DNA of 64,000 bases from Spirochaetales bacterium (GCA_947478845.1 CANJXC010000007.1:49939-113938); one strand, 5' to 3'. Counted from the stretch's first letter, positions 3,802 through 45,951 are shown. Numbers and translations are program-made. Notes: generated by a model not told the origin, from the letters alone.

Positions 3802-4671
3802 ATGAAGTTTGGAATCTACTACGCGTATTGGGAGCAAGAATGGGTCGGCGACTTCAAGTATTACATCGAAAAGGCGGCCAAACTCGGCTTCGATATCCTT
3901 GAAATCGCAGCCCATCAAATCACAACCTACTCCGACAAGCAGATCGAAGAGATCCGTTCCGCGGCCAAGGCCAATAATGTCCTTCTAACGGCCGGAATCG
4001 GACCTACCGCCGACAAGAACCTCTCTTCAGCCGATCCCGCCATCCGCGAACGGGGCAAGAAGTTCTTCACAGAAACCCTGACCCAGATAGCCCGTCTCGA
4101 GGTGAGGGCCATTGGCGGCGCCCTCCATTCCTATTGGCCGGCAGACTACACTAAACCCGTCGACAAGATGGGTGACTGGCAGCGGGGTGCCGATGGGGTC
4201 AGGGAAATCTCAAAGTTCGCCGAAGAACTCGGAATCACGCTGAATATCGAGGTGCTCAACCGGTTTGAGAACTTCGTGCTCAATACCGCTGAAGAAGGTG
4301 TCGCCTTCGTAAGGCAGGTGGGTCGACCCAACGTTAAGGTCATGCTCGATACCTTTCATATGAACATTGAAGAAGACTCCATCGGCGGTGCGATACGTAC
4401 GGCCGGCCCGCTCTTGGGTCACCTCCACACGGGAGAGTGCAACCGCCGCGTCCCGGGTCAGGGCCGCATGCCGTGGCGCGAAATTGGAGAAGCACTGCGC
4501 GGCATCGGCTATCAGGGAAACGTCGTCATGGAACCCTTTGTTCGCTCAGGAGGGTCAGTCGGCAACGATATCCGAGTATGGCGCGACCTGAGCAACAAGG
4601 CCAGCGAGCAGAAACTAGACCGCGACGCGATGGAAAGTCTGCGGTTCTCCCGGTTCATGCTCGAAGGTTGA
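3802..4671 (+). CDS. Ketose 3-epimerase of the D-psicose (D-allulose)/D-tagatose 3-epimerase family (xylose-isomerase-like TIM barrel)
   Basis: Near-colinear similarity to Agrobacterium D-psicose 3-epimerase as I recall it (MKxGIYYxYWExEW, IEVLNRFE, MLDTFHMNIEED, GHLHTGExNRRVPGxGRMPW, MEPFV). All four metal-binding residues (Glu/Asp/His/Glu) are present. RBS GGAGAA upstream. Confidence 0.85.
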   Translation: MKFGIYYAYWEQEWVGDFKYYIEKAAKLGFDILEIAAHQITTYSDKQIEEIRSAAKANNVLLTAGIGPTADKNLSSADPAIRERGKKFFTETLTQIARLEVRAIGGALHSYWPADYTKPVDKMGDWQRGADGVREISKFAEELGITLNIEVLNRFENFVLNTAEEGVAFVRQVGRPNVKVMLDTFHMNIEEDSIGGAIRTAGPLLGHLHTGECNRRVPGQGRMPWREIGEALRGIGYQGNVVMEPFVRSGGSVGNDIRVWRDLSNKASEQKLDRDAMESLRFSRFMLEG

Positions 4672-33464: not shown

Positions 33465-34640
33465 TCAGTGACAATTCTCGATCACTCGCACGAGCAGAAC
33501 GCCCTCTATGGCTGCCAACTCCTGTTTGAGGTGGGTGGCAATTTCGCCCGATACGTCGATGATGTTGTAAGCCACTTCGCCCTTGTTCTTATTGAGCATG
33601 TCGTCGATGTTCAACTTGTGCTTGGCCAGTATGGTGGTCACCTGGCCGATCATGTTGGGCACGTTTTTGTTGGCGATAGTGAGGCGGGTTTTACCCGTGG
33701 GGGCCATCTCGGCGGCGGGAAAGTTCACACTGTTTCTGATGTTGCCACGCTCGAGGAACTCACGGAGTTGGTCGGCAGCCATGATGGCGCAGTTGTCCTC
33801 GGCTTCGGGGGTACTGGCGCCGAGGTGGGGAATGGCCAGAATGTTGTCTATCCCCAACAGGTCGTCTTCCGGGAAGTCAGTGACGTAACCACCGAGCCGA
33901 CCCGAGGCCAGTTCGGCCTTGAGCGCGGTGTTGTCCACTAAGCCCGAGCGGCTGAGGTTGATGATGCGGGCGCCCTTTTTGGTGCGGGCCAGACATTCCT
34001 TGCTGAAAAGCCCCTTGGTTTCGGGAGTTAGAGGCACGTGGATGGTGATGAAATCGCTTTCCGCCACCAGGGCATCGAGGTTGGTGGCCTTGCGCACGGC
34101 GGTGTTCATCTTCCAGGCTGCCTCGACGCTGATGTAGGGGTCAAAACCGATCACCTTTACGCCAAGTGAGTTGGCAGCGTTGGCGATCATGACGCCGATG
34201 GCGCCCAACCCAATGACACCCAGCGTTTTGCCTTCGATTTCAGGACCAACGAACTGTGCCTTACCTTTTTCGACTAACTCGGGCACCTCATCACCTTTGC
34301 CCTTGAGGCTCTGGCTCCAGCCCAGGCCCTGTACGATGCGGCGACTCGAGAGCAGCATGGCGGCGATGACAAGTTCCTTGACGGCATTGGCGTTGGCGCC
34401 CGGGGTGTTAAACACCACGATGCCCTTTTCGGTGGCGGCCGGAATTGGAATGTTGTTGGTACCGGCACCTGCGCGCGCTATGGCCAGCAGGGTGGTGGGC
34501 AGTTCGAAGGTATGCATGTCTTGGCTGCGGACAAGGATACCGTCGGGATGCCCAAGCTCGCTGGCGGTTTCGTAGGATTCGCGGGGCAGGCGCTCGAGTC
34601 CGCAGGCGGCGATTTTGTTCAATGTCTGGATTTTAAACAT
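33465..34640 (-). CDS. serA: D-3-phosphoglycerate dehydrogenase
   Basis: 2-hydroxyacid dehydrogenase fold with GLGAIG NAD motif and a C-terminal ACT-like region. Confidence 0.85.
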   Translation of the reverse strand: MFKIQTLNKIAACGLERLPRESYETASELGHPDGILVRSQDMHTFELPTTLLAIARAGAGTNNIPIPAATEKGIVVFNTPGANANAVKELVIAAMLLSSRRIVQGLGWSQSLKGKGDEVPELVEKGKAQFVGPEIEGKTLGVIGLGAIGVMIANAANSLGVKVIGFDPYISVEAAWKMNTAVRKATNLDALVAESDFITIHVPLTPETKGLFSKECLARTKKGARIINLSRSGLVDNTALKAELASGRLGGYVTDFPEDDLLGIDNILAIPHLGASTPEAEDNCAIMAADQLREFLERGNIRNSVNFPAAEMAPTGKTRLTIANKNVPNMIGQVTTILAKHKLNIDDMLNKNKGEVAYNIIDVSGEIATHLKQELAAIEGVLLVRVIENCH

Positions 34641-34653
34641 GGGTGCATTCTCC

Positions 34654-35745
34654 TCAGTTGTTTTTCGTTTCGAACTCTTTCAGGAAGGCCACGAGTTTTT
34701 CCACACCGGCAATAGGCATGGCGTTGTAGATGCTGGCGCGCATACCACCCACAGAGCGGTGACCGGCCAGATTAACCAAGCCTGTGGCTTCGGCTTCCTT
34801 GACGAACTTCTTGTTCACGGCCTCAGCCACCTCGGGGTCGGCCACGCGGGTCAGGAAAGGCACGTTCATTAGCGAGCGGTCGGCACTTTCCACGGGGCTG
34901 CAAAAGAACTTCGACTGGTCGAGATATCCATAAAGTAACTCGGCCTTCTTCTGGTTCGCTGCAAACAGGGCCTTGGTTCCGCCGGTCTCTTGAATCCACT
35001 CCAGAACCAGCTTGACGATGTAAATCGCGTAGCAGGGTGGAGTGTTGAACATCGAGCCGTTGTCGACGTGCGTCTGGAAACTCAGCATGGCTGGCAAGTT
35101 TGCGGGAATGCGGGGCATCAGGTCTTTCTTAATGATGACAAGCGTAACGCCGGCAGGGCCAAGGTTTTTTTGCGCGCCGGCATACACCAAGGCGAACTTA
35201 CTGATATCGAGTGGCTCGCTCAAAATACCCGAGGAGATGTCGGCGATGAGCGGAACCTTCGTGTCGGGGATTTTGTGGTATTGAGTGCCCTCAATAGTAT
35301 TGTTATACGTGATATGCAGATAGTCAGCTTCCGGGTCGGCGCCAGTGATGACGGGCAAATAGCTCCACTTCTTGTCCTTCGATGAACCGACAGTATTCGC
35401 TTTGCCCAGTCTGGTCGCCTCTTCGATGGCCTTGATGGCCCAAGCCCCTGTGAGCGTGAAGTCGGCTTTCTTGTTCACGGTCATGAAGTTGAGGGGAATC
35501 ATGTGGAACATGAGGCTCGCGCCACCTTGCAAAAACAAGACATGGTAATCTTCGGGTACGTTCATCACTTCGCGCACCAAGCGCTCGGCACCGGCGATAA
35601 TGCTCTCGTAAGCCTTCGAGCGGTGGCTCATTTCCATCACCGACTGGCCCGTGCCGTCCCAGTCGAGCATTTCGGCAGCGGCCTTGGCTAAGACTGATTC
35701 GGGCAACATGGACGGCCCGGCAGAAAAATTATGCACTCGCTTCAT
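34654..35745 (-). CDS. serC: Phosphoserine aminotransferase
   Basis: Canonical SerC N-terminus (HNFSAGPSMLPESVL). PLP-fold class V. RBS GGAGGGAG. Confidence 0.9.
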   Translation of the reverse strand: MKRVHNFSAGPSMLPESVLAKAAAEMLDWDGTGQSVMEMSHRSKAYESIIAGAERLVREVMNVPEDYHVLFLQGGASLMFHMIPLNFMTVNKKADFTLTGAWAIKAIEEATRLGKANTVGSSKDKKWSYLPVITGADPEADYLHITYNNTIEGTQYHKIPDTKVPLIADISSGILSEPLDISKFALVYAGAQKNLGPAGVTLVIIKKDLMPRIPANLPAMLSFQTHVDNGSMFNTPPCYAIYIVKLVLEWIQETGGTKALFAANQKKAELLYGYLDQSKFFCSPVESADRSLMNVPFLTRVADPEVAEAVNKKFVKEAEATGLVNLAGHRSVGGMRASIYNAMPIAGVEKLVAFLKEFETKNN

Positions 35746-35818
35746 CAGGAAACTCCCTCCGGAAGGTTAACCCCGGTGAACTGAAGATAAACAACCGGTG
35801 GAAGTGTGTCGAGTTTAC

Positions 35819-35836
35819 CTGTGAATAAATTCACAA
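35819..35836. promoter_or_regulatory. Near-consensus Rex operator upstream of serC-serA
   Basis: CTGTGAA-TAAA-TTCACAA matches 17/18 positions of the Rex box TTGTGAAnnnnTTCACAA. It lies 74-91 nt upstream of the serC start and is adjacent to a putative -35/-10 (TCGACA-17-TATCTT on the minus strand). Confidence 0.5.
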
Positions 35837-35854
35837 CTTGCCGATTTCGGCAAG
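35837..35854 (-). terminator. Short hairpin downstream of the EVE gene (possible terminator)
   Basis: CTTGCCGA-tt-TCGGCAAG inverted repeat, followed on the minus strand by an A/U-rich stretch. Confidence 0.3.
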
Positions 35855-35864
35855 TTGCTCAAGG

Positions 35865-36335
35865 TCAGGAAGCCGAAGCTGGCCGTAAAGAGTTCACAAA
35901 GGACCATTCCTCGGGAGCTACTGGTGTAATCGAGAGGCGGTTACCCCGCTGGAGCACCACCATAGAAGCCAGTTCCGGGAAGGACCGAAGTTCCGACAAA
36001 GGAATCAATTCCCATTTGCGTTGGAGTGTGACGTCCACTTGGAACCAACGCGGCGCCTCCCGCGTTGCCTTGGGGTCGAAATAGTCACTTTCGGGGTCGA
36101 ACTGTGTGGGGTCGGGATAGCTTTCGCGGCTCACGCGCACGATGCCTGCGATGCCCGGCAGAGGACAACTGGAATGGTAATAAAACACCAAGTCTCCGAC
36201 GCGCATCTGGTCGCGCATGTAGTTGCGAGCCAGATAATTGCGTACACCATACCAACCTACGGTCTGGCCCGAGTAACTCTCGAGGTCGTCTACAGAGGTA
36301 ATAGAGGGTTCAATTTTCATCAGCCAAGTGTTCAT
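35865..36335 (-). CDS. EVE (PUA-like) domain protein
   Basis: MNTWLMKIEP...VGDLVFYYHS: typical EVE-domain N-terminus and core. Confidence 0.75.
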   Translation of the reverse strand: MNTWLMKIEPSITSVDDLESYSGQTVGWYGVRNYLARNYMRDQMRVGDLVFYYHSSCPLPGIAGIVRVSRESYPDPTQFDPESDYFDPKATREAPRWFQVDVTLQRKWELIPLSELRSFPELASMVVLQRGNRLSITPVAPEEWSFVNSLRPASAS

Positions 36336-37138: not shown

Positions 37139-38032
37139 TTATACTCGAGAATCTGACTGGCGAAGTGGATTCTGTTTATAAAAGCGCATCAGAAGATCAA
37201 AGACGCCCGGGTACTGTTTTTTGAGCACCTGGGGAGTCTCAAAAAACACCTCGCTGCACACCGCAAAAAACTCTCCCGGGTCGGTGGCCGCATACGGGTC
37301 GATAGCCAACTGCGCCTCAGCCTTTCGCCCCAATCGTCGCGCCTGGCGTTCCAGGTCGGTAAAGGCCAAAGTGAACACGGTCTTCCATTGTTCAAAATCC
37401 ATGTCGGAATGCAAAGGCGGGCAACCGTCGACCCCTCCATTGCGGGCATCGAGCTTGTGCGCCATTTCATGGATCACCACGTTGTAGCCCTCACCCCAGC
37501 CTGAGTCTTCGATATCGCGCCAGCTCAGAATGACCGGACCAAGGGGCAAAATCTCTCCGCCGAGTTCCTCGTTGGTTTCGTGCACCAAATGGCCGTCTGG
37601 CGTGAGCATTTGCTCCTTAAACTCTTTTGGTACAAGGATCAAGGTGCTCCAGTCGTTATACCAGTCGATTCCCAGTTCAAGCACCGGGAGGCAGGCCTGC
37701 ACGGCAAGGCTGGCCTTTTGAAACTCGTCGAGGGACAGACCTCTTACCAGTTCAAACTGCTTTTCGGCAAGAAAAATTGTCGTGAGGTCGCGCAGGCGTG
37801 ATTTTTCACCGTAGGTGAGGCGAGCGAGAATCGGGTGTTGAACCAGAAGCTCGCTCCATAACTCCGCGTTCAGGGGTTTTGTAGCTAGGAGCTTGCGACG
37901 GCGGGCATTTCGGAAGTAGGACAGCGTTAAGGCACCCTCGGCAAGGTTTTCATAGTCCTGTGAAGACTCCTCGTTCTTCAAGCCACACCTGCCGCCGGTT
38001 GAGCCGGAGCACGGAAGACGCGTAATTGACAA
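37139..38032 (-). CDS. mtfA: MtfA-like zinc metallopeptidase (M90 family)
   Basis: HEMAHKLD zinc motif. Extended colinearity with E. coli MtfA (LPVLELGIDW, AATDPGEFFAVCSEVFFETP, YKQNPLRQ). The start is uncertain. Confidence 0.75.
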   Translation of the reverse strand: MSITRLPCSGSTGGRCGLKNEESSQDYENLAEGALTLSYFRNARRRKLLATKPLNAELWSELLVQHPILARLTYGEKSRLRDLTTIFLAEKQFELVRGLSLDEFQKASLAVQACLPVLELGIDWYNDWSTLILVPKEFKEQMLTPDGHLVHETNEELGGEILPLGPVILSWRDIEDSGWGEGYNVVIHEMAHKLDARNGGVDGCPPLHSDMDFEQWKTVFTLAFTDLERQARRLGRKAEAQLAIDPYAATDPGEFFAVCSEVFFETPQVLKKQYPGVFDLLMRFYKQNPLRQSDSRV

Positions 38033-38633
38033 TTCGTTTCACACCCCCTTGCACAAACCGCTCGGCGACTTTCTGCGCTTCCATTGCGGGAACCAACAGG
38101 ATGGCCGCTTCGAGTCCGAGCCTGAGGCTCACCCGTGTGATGTCAGTGGTGGGCCAAACAGGGAAGTTCACCTCCAGCTGTTCCAGGCGGTTGGCCCGCG
38201 AATCGAAGCCGGCCAGAAGTTGGTAGGGGCTGTCCGTACGAAGGATCAATTCGTCGGCAAGGGACAGTCCCCAGTCGCTCAGGCCGGCGACAGCGGTTCT
38301 GAGAGGTTGCCGGGGAGTGGGGTGTAAATAGGTTTCTATCCTCCGGGCCAGTTCTGCTGGTTGATAGGCTGATCCCCCCGTGGCGGCCTCGCCAGCCCTC
38401 ATAGGACACCAGGAAAGGTCTTTTCTCACGGTTGCGGCGGTGGTTCCCAGCCAGCGGGCCAGTTCATTGCTGGTCACCGTGTCGCGGTGGAGGGCCACCA
38501 AATCACCGAGCATCGCCTGCATGAGGCCTAAGCGTTCGATTGTCGCAGGTGACGGTTGTGGCTCGGTATTAAAACGCGGTGTAATGCAGACCCCACTTGT
38601 CGTAAAGATCCAGAACCTCTTTCTTCTTGCCAA
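37950..38633 (-). CDS. Rex-like redox-sensing repressor paralogue with a degenerate dinucleotide-binding motif
   Basis: Winged-helix region with VRKDLS. C-terminal LLVPAMEAQKVAERFVQGGVKRIVNYASSVL parallels Rex (LTVPREAAQ...GIKGILNFAP). The GxGxxG is replaced by AVAGLSDWG. It overlaps the MtfA gene; the start is uncertain. Confidence 0.5.
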   Translation of the reverse strand: MARRKRFWIFTTSGVCITPRFNTEPQPSPATIERLGLMQAMLGDLVALHRDTVTSNELARWLGTTAATVRKDLSWCPMRAGEAATGGSAYQPAELARRIETYLHPTPRQPLRTAVAGLSDWGLSLADELILRTDSPYQLLAGFDSRANRLEQLEVNFPVWPTTDITRVSLRLGLEAAILLVPAMEAQKVAERFVQGGVKRIVNYASSVLRLNRRQVWLEERGVFTGL

Positions 38634-40836
38634 TAAAAGTGACGCTGGCCTTCACGAAGTAGTCGATTTTCTGCGGCTCTGTTTGTGGAAGTTGGTCCTC
38701 CGGCAGTTCCCGGTACTGACGATAGAGCTTGGTGAGCCAGCTAGTCCCATATCGATCCATCATTTCTTGAAACAACCCGAGCTTAAAGAAAGGGTCCTCG
38801 ATTTCGGGTGAAGTGTTGTAATCTTTCTTCTGGGTAGGGCGCTTGAAATACTCCCGCCCAAGAGTCTTGATACCAGTGGCGACGAGTTTAGGGAAAACGA
38901 TGTTATCATCGACGGGAATGATCCAGGGATTCTTTTCTTTCCAGTGCTTAACCATGACTAGGCTGAAAATGTTCGTTGTAACTTCGCCGATTGCGTTCCA
39001 GGTCCACGATTGCTGGTAATTGTGCCCCATTTCATGCCAAAAGCCCCAAAGTTTCTGGGTTTTGGAGTTTGCAAGGTGGGAAAGTTGGTCGTCGTCATAG
39101 AAGTGAATCGGGTAACCCGAGTACATGTACGCTTGATAAGAGATCTCGATGTCTTTGAGGTAGCGCTCGGGGTTCCTCGGGGCTGTGTGTGGCAAGGCGG
39201 CAGTTGAGGAAAGACCCGCTAACTCCTTGTAAACGGAAAGGTTGTCGTCCCAAGTGGCCGTCAATACCTCCGGGTCGATCTTCGAAAGCGCTGAGACGGG
39301 TAAAGTGAAAATAACCTGATCGCTGGCAATTTCTCCCCACGGAGCTGCGCAGGAGGCCAACATGGCTTTCCATTCCTTGGCTGTCGTCTTGCCCCTTTGA
39401 AACCAAGGCGCTTGTACCGCGCCATTAAACGTCATTTCTCCCCGATAGCGAAAACTCCTTTTGTCGGGAATCAGATAAATCAGGCCGCCGAACGCACTGG
39501 TTACAGTGTTGACGCCAACATTCAGGGGAAAAATAACGACTAACATGGGGTCACGAGACCAAAGTAGGTTGGTCGACAACGTATCTGGATGGCTGCCTAT
39601 TTGAACTGAAAGACCCGCGAGTTCCAAGGGGACCGTGATTGTGACGGGCTGTCCGGAGGGAGCATACATTCCCGTGCTCTGCCAGTAGTCCCCGGTTTGG
39701 TTTTGGCGGAGGTAAGACAGATCTTCGGCTTGAAAATCGACAGCGAGCGGTGAACTCCCGGAGAATTGGGTCTTCCCTGGCAAAAGACTCCCTGGGAAGG
39801 CCGCCGAAGCTTGTACCAACTGGTTCGCGTCAGAGTGATCAGAAAGAAACAGCGAAAACTGGGCTGCCAGCTGCCCAGCAGTTGGAGTTATATCGAGTTC
39901 GGCTAGCGGGGTGAAGCTCGTCGCTGCTTTGCCAAACCCTTCGGCTAGCTTCCCCAGACCCGGTGGGTTTCTTGGCAGATCGCTAAGGACTGAGACGATG
40001 TTTTGTAGCGCCTTGGTTTGCAGAGCCAACAGGGCCTTCAGGTTTGCTGTGGCGTTAGGTGCCTTCAAGGCTTGGGCATACTGGAGCACCGGGTCCCAGT
40101 TTGGCTTCGGTGAGTTCCGGGTGTTGAGACCCTCTGGCCACTCTTCGCCCTCGTTTGAGAGACCCAAACCGAACTCGAAGAGGAGTTTCTGGACCCCTTT
40201 GCATTTCAGTCCTTTGGCCCCGCCGAAGATCCAACCTGGCATAGCTGCGAGGGCCCCTCCTCCCGCTCCCACATAGGCCTTGACCAGAGCCTGCTCTTCG
40301 TCGGTGGTATCTGCGGAAATCCAGGCGATGCGGCCACTTCCCTTCTTCAGGTCGGCCTCTTGAAACCTGCTTACATAAAACACCTCTACGGACAAGCCCT
40401 TGAGTTTCAACGTCATCTGACCTTTTTTTTCGGCCCCGTTTTGGACTAAAGTAACTTTCGAGAGTTGTTTCTTGTCTTCAAGGAAAGCCAACCACTGCAA
40501 GCTGTTGACCGCAAAAGTGTCGAGGTTTGACTGATCTATCTCTGCCATCCGACCCAGGTTGAAGAACGCATCGTGACCGGCAGCTAGAACGCGCCCTTTG
40601 CCAAAGAGGGAGGCCGAAACGCTTGGGCGGCCGTCTGGGCTTCCGAGCACCGCAAACGCTTCGGGCCCAAAGGTGTGCATGTAAGAAATATAGGCATCAC
40701 CGAAGCCTGACATATGGTCGATTCCCGCTACGAGCAGGCGCTGCACTCGGGTTGAATCATTCTCGGCGCTGAGGCTCGCCGCACCGATCACAAAGATCAA
40801 GCAGGATAGCAACATCCTCGATAAACTTCTTTCCAT
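38569..40836 (-). CDS. Secreted M60-like (enhancin-like) zinc metallopeptidase
   Basis: Signal peptide. HEMGHN...(13 aa)...E matches the M60-like HEXXHX(8-24)E signature (WGFWHEMGHNYQQSWTWNAIGE). 755 aa. Confidence 0.55.
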   Translation of the reverse strand: MERSLSRMLLSCLIFVIGAASLSAENDSTRVQRLLVAGIDHMSGFGDAYISYMHTFGPEAFAVLGSPDGRPSVSASLFGKGRVLAAGHDAFFNLGRMAEIDQSNLDTFAVNSLQWLAFLEDKKQLSKVTLVQNGAEKKGQMTLKLKGLSVEVFYVSRFQEADLKKGSGRIAWISADTTDEEQALVKAYVGAGGGALAAMPGWIFGGAKGLKCKGVQKLLFEFGLGLSNEGEEWPEGLNTRNSPKPNWDPVLQYAQALKAPNATANLKALLALQTKALQNIVSVLSDLPRNPPGLGKLAEGFGKAATSFTPLAELDITPTAGQLAAQFSLFLSDHSDANQLVQASAAFPGSLLPGKTQFSGSSPLAVDFQAEDLSYLRQNQTGDYWQSTGMYAPSGQPVTITVPLELAGLSVQIGSHPDTLSTNLLWSRDPMLVVIFPLNVGVNTVTSAFGGLIYLIPDKRSFRYRGEMTFNGAVQAPWFQRGKTTAKEWKAMLASCAAPWGEIASDQVIFTLPVSALSKIDPEVLTATWDDNLSVYKELAGLSSTAALPHTAPRNPERYLKDIEISYQAYMYSGYPIHFYDDDQLSHLANSKTQKLWGFWHEMGHNYQQSWTWNAIGEVTTNIFSLVMVKHWKEKNPWIIPVDDNIVFPKLVATGIKTLGREYFKRPTQKKDYNTSPEIEDPFFKLGLFQEMMDRYGTSWLTKLYRQYRELPEDQLPQTEPQKIDYFVKASVTFIGKKKEVLDLYDKWGLHYTAF

Positions 40837-40845
40837 TGGCTTCTC

Positions 40846-42180
40846 CTAGGTTTTCCAAATTGACTTAAGCGCTTCTTGAATGCGGCGGATCTTTCCGGGC
40901 TCTGGGACTACCACCTGATGAAAACCTAAGTCGTTGGCGGCTTTAACACGCCGGCGCAAATGGGTGGTGGGTCTCACTTCCCCGGCTAGGCTGAGTTCCC
41001 CGGCGCTTGCGACTCCAGAAGGCAAGGGTTGGCCGGTGCGCGCGGAGTACAGGGCCAAGGCTAGCGGGAGGTCGGCTCCCGGGTCGTTAATGCGCATGCC
41101 CCCGGCCACGTTCACGTATAAATCCTGCTCGCTGAACTTCAGTCCAGTATGTTTTTCCAGAATGGCCGCAATTCGGCTCACCCTGCCGGAGTCAATGCGG
41201 TCGCTGAAAACCCGGCTCATGCCGCCTTTGGCAGGAACCGTGAGCGCTTGCAACTCCACAAGAAGAGCCCGGCTACCCTCAAAGATAGGTGCCACCGAAA
41301 TTCCCGGTGGCAGTTCGCCTTCCCGTTGTATCAAAAAAATTGAGGCTGGGTTGGTCACTTCACTTAGGCCGTGTTCATCCATGGTGAAGAGCCCCACTTC
41401 GTCGACGCTACCAAAACGGTTTTTGGTGGCACGAAGAATGCGGATGTCGCCTGCCGCCTGCTCAAAATGAAGTACCGTGTCTACCATGTGTTCGATCACT
41501 TTGGGGCCGGCAATTTGCCCGCCCTTAGTCACATGCGCAATGAGGAAACTTGAGGTTTCATGTTCCTTGCACCAACTCAAAATTTCGTGGCAACCGTACT
41601 TGAGTTGGTTGACGGTACCAGGAACCTCCCCGGCATCGGGGTTGTAGAGGGTCTGAATGCTGTCGACGATCACGAGCACAGGTTTGATTTTCTCGAGCAC
41701 ATTGCTGATGACGGGCACGTGGGTTTCGACAAGGATCTCAAGGCCCTGGCGAGAAATGCCCAGCCGGTCGGCCCGCATTTTGATCTGAGCGGCCGACTCC
41801 TCACCGGTGATGTAGAGAACCCGGCCCGCCGTTTTTACCTTGGCTGCAAGCTGAAGCAGGAGTGTGGACTTGCCAATTCCCGGTTCACCGCCGATGAGCA
41901 CTGAGGCACCCCGGATGATGCCGCCACCGAGCACTTGGTTCACTTCGCTCAGGCCTGCGTCGATACGGATATCGGCTTGCGCTTCGAGGGAAGCCAGCGG
42001 GATGCTATGCCCGCCCGAAGTCGCACGCGGGTCTCCAGGAAGTGGTGCCGACTTTGGGGTGTTGGCAACCGCCTCTTCGCTAAAGCTGTTCCAAGTTCCG
42101 CATTGAGGACATCGGCCCAACCACTTCGATTCCTCGTGCTGGCAGGCGTTGCAAAGGTAAACGGTCTTTCTCTTGGCCAT
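40846..42180 (-). CDS. radA: DNA repair protein RadA/Sms
   Basis: N-terminal C4 zinc finger (CNACQ...CPQC), Walker A GEPGIGKST, KNRFG motif and a Lon-like C-terminal domain. Confidence 0.9.
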   Translation of the reverse strand: MAKRKTVYLCNACQHEESKWLGRCPQCGTWNSFSEEAVANTPKSAPLPGDPRATSGGHSIPLASLEAQADIRIDAGLSEVNQVLGGGIIRGASVLIGGEPGIGKSTLLLQLAAKVKTAGRVLYITGEESAAQIKMRADRLGISRQGLEILVETHVPVISNVLEKIKPVLVIVDSIQTLYNPDAGEVPGTVNQLKYGCHEILSWCKEHETSSFLIAHVTKGGQIAGPKVIEHMVDTVLHFEQAAGDIRILRATKNRFGSVDEVGLFTMDEHGLSEVTNPASIFLIQREGELPPGISVAPIFEGSRALLVELQALTVPAKGGMSRVFSDRIDSGRVSRIAAILEKHTGLKFSEQDLYVNVAGGMRINDPGADLPLALALYSARTGQPLPSGVASAGELSLAGEVRPTTHLRRRVKAANDLGFHQVVVPEPGKIRRIQEALKSIWKT

Positions 42181-44601: not shown

Positions 44602-45237
44602 TTAAGCTCCGCTGAGGCCGTTGCGAATCACCTGAAAAAACAGATTTTCAATTTCGACCCCGATGTTGATGTTATGAATAATACAATTCGGGGTGGTTTT
44701 CAATTCGACCGGTGTAAAGTTCAAGATACCTCGGATGCCGGAGTCCTTGAGCAACTTGTGACTTTCGGTAGCGACCTCTTCGGGAACCGCCAGAATGGCC
44801 ACCTGGATGCTATTGGCGTTGCAGAAGGCCGCCAACTCCTCGATGGGGTAAACCTTGAGAGAAAGCGACTCGGGCAACCCGACTGGGCGGACGTCGAACC
44901 CAGCGGCAACCTCAAAGTCTCCCTGTAAAAACCCCTTATACTGAGCAATGGCCGTACCAATCTTGCCCATGCCCAAAATGATGATCTTTTGTTCATTGGT
45001 TTTGCCTAAAATCAGTCCCAGTTGCTCCGAAAGGTAGTCGATGTTGTAGCCACCGCGTTTGTTGCCACCAAGCACTAACAATGAAAAGTCCTTGCGAACT
45101 AGTGCCGGGGCTACTCCAATCGCATCGCCTAGGTTGTTCGAGAACACCTTTTCAAAACCGAGGCTTTTTAGCTGGGTGAGAATGCGCCTATACTTCAATA
45201 GACGAATGACTAGTTCTTTATTAAGGGTTCCACGCAT
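44602..45237 (-). CDS. rex: Redox-sensing transcriptional repressor Rex
   Basis: Winged-helix region with VRKDFS. Rossmann motif ILGMGKIGTA. C-terminal GIRGILNFTPV. 211 aa. Confidence 0.85.
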   Translation of the reverse strand: MRGTLNKELVIRLLKYRRILTQLKSLGFEKVFSNNLGDAIGVAPALVRKDFSLLVLGGNKRGGYNIDYLSEQLGLILGKTNEQKIIILGMGKIGTAIAQYKGFLQGDFEVAAGFDVRPVGLPESLSLKVYPIEELAAFCNANSIQVAILAVPEEVATESHKLLKDSGIRGILNFTPVELKTTPNCIIHNINIGVEIENLFFQVIRNGLSGA

Positions 45238-45241
45238 TTTA

Positions 45242-45259
45242 TTGTACTAAGTTTCACAA
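45242..45259. promoter_or_regulatory. Putative Rex autoregulatory operator within the rex leader
   Basis: TTGTACT-AAGT-TTCACAA has one perfect half-site and one 4/7 half-site. It overlaps the predicted transcription start region downstream of a minus-strand promoter (TTGCCA-17-TACATT at 45271-45299). Confidence 0.45.
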
Positions 45260-45306
45260 AAACTTCTCTTAATGTAGGCGAGTTTCTTGCGTTTGGCAAG
45301 CAGTAT

Positions 45307-45951
45307 TTGTCAGAACGAACCAAGCCTGCTAGGATGGCCACCGGGGAAGAGGTGGTTCGAGTGCAGACCCGGTACACAGATTGCCTAGTCGTCTACCTCT
45401 GTCTTGCGGTGTCGAGCTTCGCTGTCGAGGCACCGTCCCTGGTGCTGAATCCTTTTGTGATGGCTCCGCCCGCCCTAACGGCTCTTGAACGGGCAAAGTT
45501 CTTGCTTTTTCAGAATCCAACCCTGAGTCCAGGTTTTTCGCTGAACATGGCCCTTCTCTACGAGGAGGAGGCGTCGGCAGAGAACGTGAGTCCTGACATC
45601 GCCTTTGCCCAGATGTGTCTGGAAACTTCTTACCTCAGGTTTGGAAATCAGGTGCGGTCGGGACAATACAATTTTGCCGGACTAGGAGCTGTTGATGGAG
45701 GAACGAACGCTCTTACCTTTGGATCTCCCCGAGAAGGCGTAAGGGCTCAGGTACAACACCTGAAATACTATGCCTCGACCCTCCCCTTGCAAAGTCCTCC
45801 TGTCAATCCGCGCCTTGTGTATGTTAGCCGGGGCATTGCCCCCACCGTGTGGCAATTGGCGGGAACTTGGGCCAGCGATGTCGACTACGGAAAAAAACTG
45901 CTCGCGGTCTTGCAAAGGATGCTCGGCTACGCGCGCACCCCAACTCGCTGA
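45307..45951 (+). CDS. Glucosaminidase-domain protein (GH73-like peptidoglycan hydrolase), membrane-anchored
   Basis: AQMCLETSYLRFG...YNFAGLG...SPREGVRAQVQHLKYY resembles the glucosaminidase (FlgJ/AcmA-type) domain. An N-terminal hydrophobic segment is present. Confidence 0.45.
   Translation: MSERTKPARMATGEEVVRVQTRYTDCLVVYLCLAVSSFAVEAPSLVLNPFVMAPPALTALERAKFLLFQNPTLSPGFSLNMALLYEEEASAENVSPDIAFAQMCLETSYLRFGNQVRSGQYNFAGLGAVDGGTNALTFGSPREGVRAQVQHLKYYASTLPLQSPPVNPRLVYVSRGIAPTVWQLAGTWASDVDYGKKLLAVLQRMLGYARTPTR

Follow-up and report, generated by a model that had tools for sequence, protein, structure and literature searches.

A conserved palindrome at the serC-serA promoter of a Spirochaetales bacterium is a predicted Rex-family operator with a divergent Rex paralog encoded nearby

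Does an NADH sensor control an operon for serine biosynthesis whose dehydrogenase itself produces NADH, and which member of the Rex family would act there? Both questions are raised by a palindrome at 35819-35836 of the window, that is, of the whole 64,000-nucleotide stretch of DNA analyzed here. An earlier sequence-only reading had taken the region for a near-perfect Rex operator in front of serC-serA. The identities of the two genes are clear. serC (34654-35745, minus strand) encodes a phosphoserine aminotransferase of 363 amino acids that scores above the cutoffs of both NCBIfam NF003764 (506.6 bits) and TIGR01364 (466 bits). serA follows 13 nt after serC on the same strand (33465-34640) and encodes a serA-type D-3-phosphoglycerate dehydrogenase (3-PGDH) of 391 amino acids, with the Pfam domains 2-Hacid_dh and 2-Hacid_dh_C. 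It scores under the NCBIfam equivalog cutoffs; its best PDB matches are full-length D-3-phosphoglycerate dehydrogenases, and serA neighbors serC in 78 of 80 related loci. Since serC and serA both lie on the minus strand, the palindrome stands upstream of both.

The palindrome, CTGTGAATAAATTCACAA on the plus strand and TTGTGAATTTATTCACAG on the gene strand, agrees with the Rex consensus TTGTGAA-N4-TTCACAA at 17 of 18 positions, as the sequence-only reading had counted, and the single mismatch falls at an outer position. A perfect inverted repeat of 7 nt, TGTGAAT/ATTCACA, forms its core, with arms at 35820-35826 and 35829-35835. In the window-wide scan it was the sole match with at most one mismatch, against 0.01 expected; this estimate is based on dinucleotide-preserving shuffles, 1 of 100 of which gave a match of this quality. 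At a looser threshold of up to three mismatches, the window holds five matches, which is near the chance expectation of 2.9. Among the four with three mismatches, three were dismissed for want of support, and the one at rex1 (45242-45259) alone is kept in relatives. The range first proposed, 35819-35858, was too long: the operator comprises 35819-35836, and 35837-35858 belongs to a separate terminator-like hairpin.

The same core, at 35820-35835, is also a perfect TGTGA-N6-TCACA, the CRP-type consensus. This core is common to CRP and Rex sites and therefore does not discriminate between them. Hence, a CRP/FNR-family regulator rather than Rex might use the palindrome, and sites 5' of the -35 hexamer are typical for CRP-type activators. 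Several observations nevertheless make this reading very unlikely. The half-sites extend to TGTGAA/TTCACA, which is Rex-like, and a partial scan of about 30 window ORFs showed no cNMP-binding or Crp protein. Moreover, the predicted transcription start puts the operator center at about -50.5, which corresponds to neither the class I nor the class II positions of CRP. Further evidence against CRP comes from the related loci and from published binding experiments, as described below.

The promoter could be read next to the operator. On the gene strand, TTGTGAATTTATTCACAG is followed by GTAAAC, the -35 hexamer TCGACA (35807-35812), a 17-nt spacer, the -10 hexamer TATCTT (35784-35789) and a leader of ~32 nt, which contains the Shine-Dalgarno-like GGAGGGAG (35753-35760; read from sequence) 7 nt before the serC ATG. 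This sigma-70-like promoter (35812-35784, minus strand) matches the consensus at 5/6 and 4/6 positions. Its -35 hexamer lies 6 nt downstream of the operator, which bears out the placement just upstream of a serC-serA -35/-10 that had been claimed. Transcription of serC-serA is predicted to start near 35777, and the distance from the operator to the serC ATG is 73 nt. A search of 35400-36200 against Rfam returned no family at E up to 1. As a separate observation, the short serC leader of the closest relative, L001, can form a hairpin of -22.8 kcal/mol (3950-3990), in which CCTCCTCACCGG is paired to the Shine-Dalgarno region, CCGGTGAGGAG. This structure is not conserved in the window or the other relatives, and a Shine-Dalgarno-sequestering hairpin in the serC 5'UTR, strong in L001 only, was dropped as a candidate.

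On its other side, the operator is abutted by a hairpin that resembles a terminator of the EVE-domain gene upstream (about 35833-35858, minus strand). The G+C-rich stem of 11 bp at 35834-35857 and the tail GAATTTATTC fold at -21.9 kcal/mol (z=-3.5), and the stem-loop with its T run has the form of an intrinsic terminator. The stem survives a G-C to G-U change in L084. The 3' arm and the T-rich tail run into the operator and overlap its first 4 nt, and in the window and L084-L086 the AT-rich center of the operator doubles as the T tract of the hairpin. As a side observation, transcription of M90-redoxin-EVE might read through into serC-serA, and termination and regulator binding might interfere with each other.

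Given so strong a hairpin, for which the palindrome center supplies the T-rich tail, the palindrome could be non-regulatory, either as part of the EVE terminator region or as a chance inverted repeat. We regard this as hardly credible. The palindrome is kept in L002, L003, L088, and L090, where the upstream gene differs or diverges; its half-sites are kept and its spacer is variable; and 0.01 matches per window are expected by chance. The reading of the palindrome itself as a terminator was rejected separately, because its AT-rich arms of 7 nt are just 2 nt apart and cannot form a hairpin.

Conservation was followed in related loci. MAGs labelled Spirochaetales supply the closest serC loci, at SerC identities of 72-89%. 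In an alignment of eight loci (window, L084, L001, L006, L009, L002, L005, and L003), the invariant columns are only those of the half-sites TGT.A / T.ACAG, the -35 T.GAC and the -10 TAT..T; the 4-nt operator spacer and all flanks vary. The operator is kept in L084-86, L001, L006, L009, L002/L005, and L003, and the gap from its end to the -35 hexamer is 5-6 nt at every one of nine lineage loci. In L002 and L005, CTGTTAAAAATTTAACAG occupies the equivalent position, and TGTGAA is changed to TGTTAA symmetrically in both half-sites. This half-site type is that of the published clostridial Rex motif TTGTTAA-N4-TTAACAA (PMC8457756), which speaks against a CRP/FNR-family regulator.

The gene 5' of the operator varies among these loci. 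It is the EVE gene with its hairpin in the window and another gene in L001 and L009, and the upstream neighbor is divergent in L002 (the homoserine dehydrogenase gene hom) and L003 (a WG-repeat gene). Because this neighbor differs between loci, the palindrome is assigned to the serC promoter rather than to the gene 5' of it. In L003, no box stands immediately before serC; the box is instead 5' of an intervening rex gene. Across 216 kb of lineage sequence, every Rex site with at most two mismatches sits at a serC or rex-serC promoter. No Rex box was found at serC in five relatives labelled Desulfuromonadales, Pelobacter or Formivibrio, nor in L010. Collectively, the comparative evidence strongly supports the prediction that the palindrome is a conserved Rex-family operator.

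Two further arrangements were observed in these relatives. In L002 and L005 (~3920-3945), the TGTTAA-type operator lies between serC and the divergent hom gene, whose product, too, is NAD(P)-linked, and the operator is overlapped by a further box, TTGTTAACCTGTTAAAAA, displaced by 8 nt. The serC genes of L004, L007, and L010 (73-74% identical; from MAGs labelled Desulfuromonadales, Pelobacter, and Deltaproteobacteria) are without a Rex box and share a conserved TTGACA...TGATA(A/T)TT promoter ~150-170 nt 5' of serC, which implies a long serC leader.

Apart from the window's own clade and a handful of loci labelled Desulfuromonadales, Pelobacter or Formivibrio, it is Clostridia SerC, mainly from MAGs labelled Acutalibacteraceae, that comes nearest to the SerC of the window (61-64% identity). 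Rex boxes are enriched 5' of serC in 70 Clostridia loci: 26 loci carry one against 0.84 expected at up to two mismatches, 12 against 0.08 at up to one mismatch, and 3 carry a perfect box against 0.003, although these loci are interrelated and the counts overstate their independence. Two Rex-type boxes ~53 bp apart, or five helical turns, occur at many Clostridia serC promoters (L028, L033, L036, L055, L063, L065, L072, L073, and L078), and in such two-box promoters the proximal box stops exactly 5 nt before a consensus TTGACA-17-TATAAT. In other Clostridia clades, a single box precedes the -35 hexamer by 16 nt or 26-28 nt, with an apparent phasing of ~11 bp.

Published work places Rex at this operon in thermophilic Clostridia. 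In Caldicellulosiruptor bescii, Rex binds 5' of an operon for a class V aminotransferase and a 3-PG dehydrogenase, and deleting rex raises expression of the serC operon by log2 0.57-0.63 (~1.5-fold; PMC6391272). SerC and SerA count among the best-conserved members of Rex's regulon across 14 Caldicellulosiruptor genomes (PMC8579813). Similarly, DAP-seq with Rex_2471 of Clostridium thermocellum shows a peak at the 3-PGDH gene that contains two sites, and the authors find Rex control of NADH-producing enzymes counter-intuitive (PMC8457756). Rex binding at serCA promoters is thus experimental in two Clostridia, which weighs further against the CRP/FNR alternative. In addition, a serine-pyruvate aminotransferase is assigned to the Rex regulon in five Thermotogales genomes, as far as the work of Ravcheev 2012 is relayed in PMC6391272. 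A literature search on Rex with phosphoserine aminotransferase yielded nothing past PMC6391272, PMC8579813, and PMC8457756.

These reports put the earlier interpretation in perspective. It described serC-serA as not a classical Rex target; the target is indeed non-classical, but it is not new, having been published for Caldicellulosiruptor and C. thermocellum. On the kind of site and its target, the interpretation was essentially right; its novelty was overstated. The window ORFs that were scanned include ppk, ppx, a ROK kinase, omptin, a fumarase/aspartase-type lyase, a histidine kinase, and an ABC-F protein, and none of them is adhE, ldh, a hydrogenase, nuo or cyd.

Which regulator might bind the operator was approached through the two Rex-family genes of the window. 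Rex1 (44602-45237, minus strand; 211 amino acids) is a canonical Rex, with 201 bits to NF003996 and E=4e-29 to the Thermotoga maritima Rex structure 5zz5; it aligns full-length to the Rex structures 5zz5 and 3ikt (T. maritima and Thermus aquaticus). Its canonical features are all present, namely, VRKDFS, GMGKIG, and the C-terminal helix GVEIENLFFQVI. Consequently, the protein nominated by the sequence-only reading is a genuine Rex (NF003996, 5zz5), but it may not be the cognate or the sole regulator, given the linkage of the second paralog, Rex2, described below.

Rex1 has a probable operator of its own, TTGTGAAACTTAGTACAA on the gene strand (45242-45259), with a TTGCCA-17-TACATT promoter (45299-45271) before it and the rex1 ATG after it. 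With three mismatches, this box is not significant alone. However, TTGTGAA-N4-AGTACAA is kept at rex1 with a variable spacer in the window, L081, and L087, as expected for Rex autoregulation, which is therefore predicted as probable. An inverted repeat is also seen over the -35 hexamer of the rex1 promoter (45294-45312, minus strand); it reads CTGACAAATACTGCTTGCCAA in the window and TTGACAA-N7-TTGTCAA in L081 and L087. All three genomes keep this repeat, and the Rex box 35 nt downstream is a separate element.

Rex2 (37950-38633, minus strand) is a divergent Rex-family paralog and a candidate cognate regulator. Both of its Pfam domains score above cutoff, PF06971 with 37.6 bits (cutoff 27) and PF02629 with 24.7 bits, and Rex structures are matched at E=1e-10. 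The gene lies on the strand of serC, 2.2 kb upstream of it with three intervening genes, and downstream of a radA-like gene (40846-42180) and an M60-peptidase gene (38569-40836). The N-terminal winged helix of Rex2 retains the VRKDLS recognition motif, which is invariant in the family, and the FD motif is kept. In contrast, the GxGxxG dinucleotide motif is replaced by GLSDWG; the window Rex2, P0002, and P0004 have GLS(D/E)(W/A)G in this place, whereas P0006-P0008 keep GLGDWG. Furthermore, Rex2 is without the C-terminal domain-swapped helix that is present in Rex1 and the L003-type proteins, and all six aligned members stop ~20-25 residues early. Eight Rex2 homologs were found (62-97% identical), and the five that were aligned share the truncation, which indicates a stable family rather than a pseudogene. 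With the helix absent and GLSDWG present, dimerization and the NADH response of Rex2 may differ from those of canonical Rex. The start of Rex2 is uncertain, as conserved N-terminal residues lie before the first ATG; the only canonical upstream start is a TTG at 38633, which overlaps the M60 gene by 65 nt.

The gene order around rex2 varies in the relatives. A backbone of rex1 - SHOCT-like ORF - ABC-F - radA - rex2 - M90 is kept in L081, L083, and L087, with redoxin - EVE coming after M90 in L081 and L083. It is interrupted by lineage-specific insertions: relatives have a mazE/pemK toxin-antitoxin pair ahead of radA, and L081 has a sugar-utilization cluster of 8 kb between rex2 and M90. The M60-peptidase gene between radA and rex2 occurs in the window lineage only, compared with L081, L083, and L087. 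Rex2 was not seen beside serC in the 4 kb examined at each of L006, L009, L002, and L005. In L006, a GntR regulator gene, and not rex2, stands 5' of the M90-peptidase gene, so Rex2 is not always nearby.

In other lineages, the link between a Rex-family gene and serCA is direct. L003 carries a full-length Rex-like gene between the palindrome-promoter module and serC-serA. A rex gene stands directly 5' of serC and/or serA in L003, L088, and L091 and in all 15 of the 15 metagenome loci with room downstream; L088 and L091, the latter from a MAG labelled Verrucomicrobiota, have the order rex-serC-serA. The 15 metagenome loci comprise 8 with rex-serC-serA, 5 with serC followed by the contig end, and 2 in which rex is directly followed by serA. 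That Rex-family and not CRP-family genes are co-operonic with serCA in all these loci is a further argument against a CRP/FNR-family regulator.

The rex-serCA loci have one or two upstream palindromes of the type CTGTGAAAT.A.TCACAG each. In most of the metagenome loci, the proximal palindrome begins 2-4 nt past the -10 hexamer; it therefore covers the transcription start, which is the classical position of a repressor. Where there are two boxes, the second palindrome lies ~94 bp upstream (nine helical turns). In the metagenome loci L094-L107, this ~94 bp separation suggests looping.

In a neighbor-joining tree, which is distance-based and includes a small canonical sample, the serCA-linked proteins group with the Rex2 family apart from Rex1 and other canonical Rex proteins in 98/100 bootstraps, and Rex2 joins the L003 type in 93/100. 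The window Rex2 gene does not stand directly upstream of serC or serA behind a CTGTGAA..TCACAG palindrome; the palindrome is at the serC promoter instead. Since Rex2 is not adjacent to serC, its membership of the subfamily rests on phylogeny (98/100, 93/100). A literature search found no paper on a Rex paralog dedicated to serCA. Based on the comparative evidence, a serCA-linked Rex subfamily that has a truncated representative in the window would be a genuinely new angle. In the window lineage, the Rex2 gene may have become separated from the operon, and the protein may have lost part of the GxGxxG motif as well as the C-terminal helix, through which NADH binding is coupled to DNA release.

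Taken together, we infer that the palindrome is probably the operator of a Rex-family dimer at the serC-serA promoter, with repression at low NADH/NAD+ that is relieved by NADH. A dimeric winged-helix regulator of the Rex family, with an NAD(H)-binding Rossmann domain, would occupy both TGTGAA half-sites at low NADH/NAD+ and lower the transcription of serC-serA. Rising NADH would then take the regulator off the DNA, and serC-serA would be derepressed. Such a response runs counter to classical Rex logic, since an NADH-producing enzyme is derepressed at high NADH; it could be understood as compensation. Thermodynamics disfavors the forward reaction of 3-PGDH, and NADH inhibits it; a reduced NAD pool therefore calls for more enzyme, and the extra enzyme would sustain serine flux in this state.

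NADH-relieved repression appears to be the most likely mode of control, judging from the near-consensus promoters, the derepression in C. bescii, and the operators over the transcription start in rex-serCA loci. In the window, too, the strong core promoter (5/6, 4/6, 17-nt spacer) fits repression better than activation. The position of the operator is less typical of a repressor, as it lies upstream of the -35 hexamer, clear of the -10 hexamer and the transcription start. This position, the phasing, and a precedent at the MBH operon of C. bescii are the reasons for keeping activation as a rival, in which a Rex-family regulator, bound at about -50.5 on one helix face, would stimulate RNA polymerase at low NADH, and high NADH would shut the NADH-producing branch, a physiological logic that is intuitive. 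The distance of 5-6 nt to the -35 hexamer is strictly kept in nine loci. In addition, the box-to--35 gaps in Clostridia cluster at 5-6, 16, and 26-28 nt, that is, with a phasing of ~11 bp, which suggests face-specific contact with RNA polymerase or looping between boxes, and from 27 nt upstream a box cannot block the promoter. The Rex site at MBH, 45 bp 5' of the transcription start, was read as activating (PMC8579813). However, activation seems unlikely to us. Core promoters near consensus, TTGACA-17-TATAAT in Clostridia and similarly close here, should need no activator, and the C. bescii serC operon rises rather than falls in the rex deletion. The proximal operators of the rex-serC-serA operons cover the transcription start, and the three spacing classes are probably three clades, which leaves the phasing evidence thin.

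As to which paralog would bring about NADH-relieved repression, Rex1 and Rex2 share the RKD recognition motif, and either could bind the operator. Rex1 alone of the two has all the canonical features of NADH coupling. The linkage of its subfamily to serCA favors Rex2 as the dedicated partner, possibly together with Rex1. More tentatively, Rex2, as a member of an undescribed serine-dedicated subfamily that elsewhere would form autoregulated rex-serC-serA operons, may serve the operator instead of the global Rex, from a phased position upstream of the -35 hexamer and with an altered response to redox state or to another ligand.

The locus is of interest in several respects. It carries the published but little-known link between Rex and the phosphorylated serine pathway beyond thermophilic Clostridia, into an uncultured lineage that is unrelated to them. 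The Rex-serCA link is widespread, occurring in many gut Clostridia, and some lineages have a dedicated rex-serC-serA operon. serC-serA is therefore a test case for why an NADH sensor controls NADH-producing enzymes, the question of the C. thermocellum authors, and two answers can be compared there, namely, compensation for mass-action inhibition and shut-down of NADH production. Moreover, the naturally truncated Rex2 would be useful for probing the coupling of NADH binding to DNA release through the C-terminal helix.

Compared with known systems, the window operator has the 18-bp TTGTGAA-N4-TTCACAA form of the canonical Rex operator of Streptomyces, Thermus, and Bacillus, found at cyd, nuo, ldh, and adhE. 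Common to those systems and the window are a dimeric winged-helix/Rossmann regulator and a rex gene that carries its own operator (45242-45259 in the window). The target differs, as classical Rex targets re-oxidize NADH or serve respiration or fermentation, whereas serA produces NADH. The position differs as well: classical Rex operators usually overlap or follow the promoter (PMC8579813), whereas the window operator is upstream of the -35 hexamer. With CRP-type sites, the window operator has an identical 16-bp core, and the context, the half-site extension, and the published experiments favor Rex in the window.

Among the systems in which Rex is tied to serine biosynthesis, C. thermocellum has two predicted sites 5' of the 3-PGDH gene, which are also enriched 5' of its orthologs (Hebdon 2021, PMC8457756). 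This two-box layout is seen in many Clostridia serC loci, whereas the window has a single box, and the C. thermocellum motif is TTGTTAA-N4-TTAACAA, compared with the TGTGAA type in the window. Both share the puzzle of Rex control over an NADH-producing enzyme. In C. bescii and its relatives (Sander 2018, PMC6391272; Rodionov 2021, PMC8579813), as in the window, a Rex palindrome stands ~80-90 nt 5' of an operon for an aminotransferase and 3-PGDH; the distance to the first gene is 88 nt in C. bescii and ~82 nt, taken from the palindrome center, in the window. In Caldicellulosiruptor and the window alike, the site is conserved across relatives and a Rex-family regulator is encoded. The binder in C. 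bescii is a single global Rex, shown by EMSA and sensitive to NADH, whereas the window operator is a prediction from sequence. The window organism also comes from another lineage at the phylum level (MAGs labelled Spirochaetales), and its aminotransferase is a canonical SerC (TIGR01364) rather than the class V aminotransferase of C. bescii. Finally, unlike C. bescii, the window has a second, serCA-linked Rex paralog.
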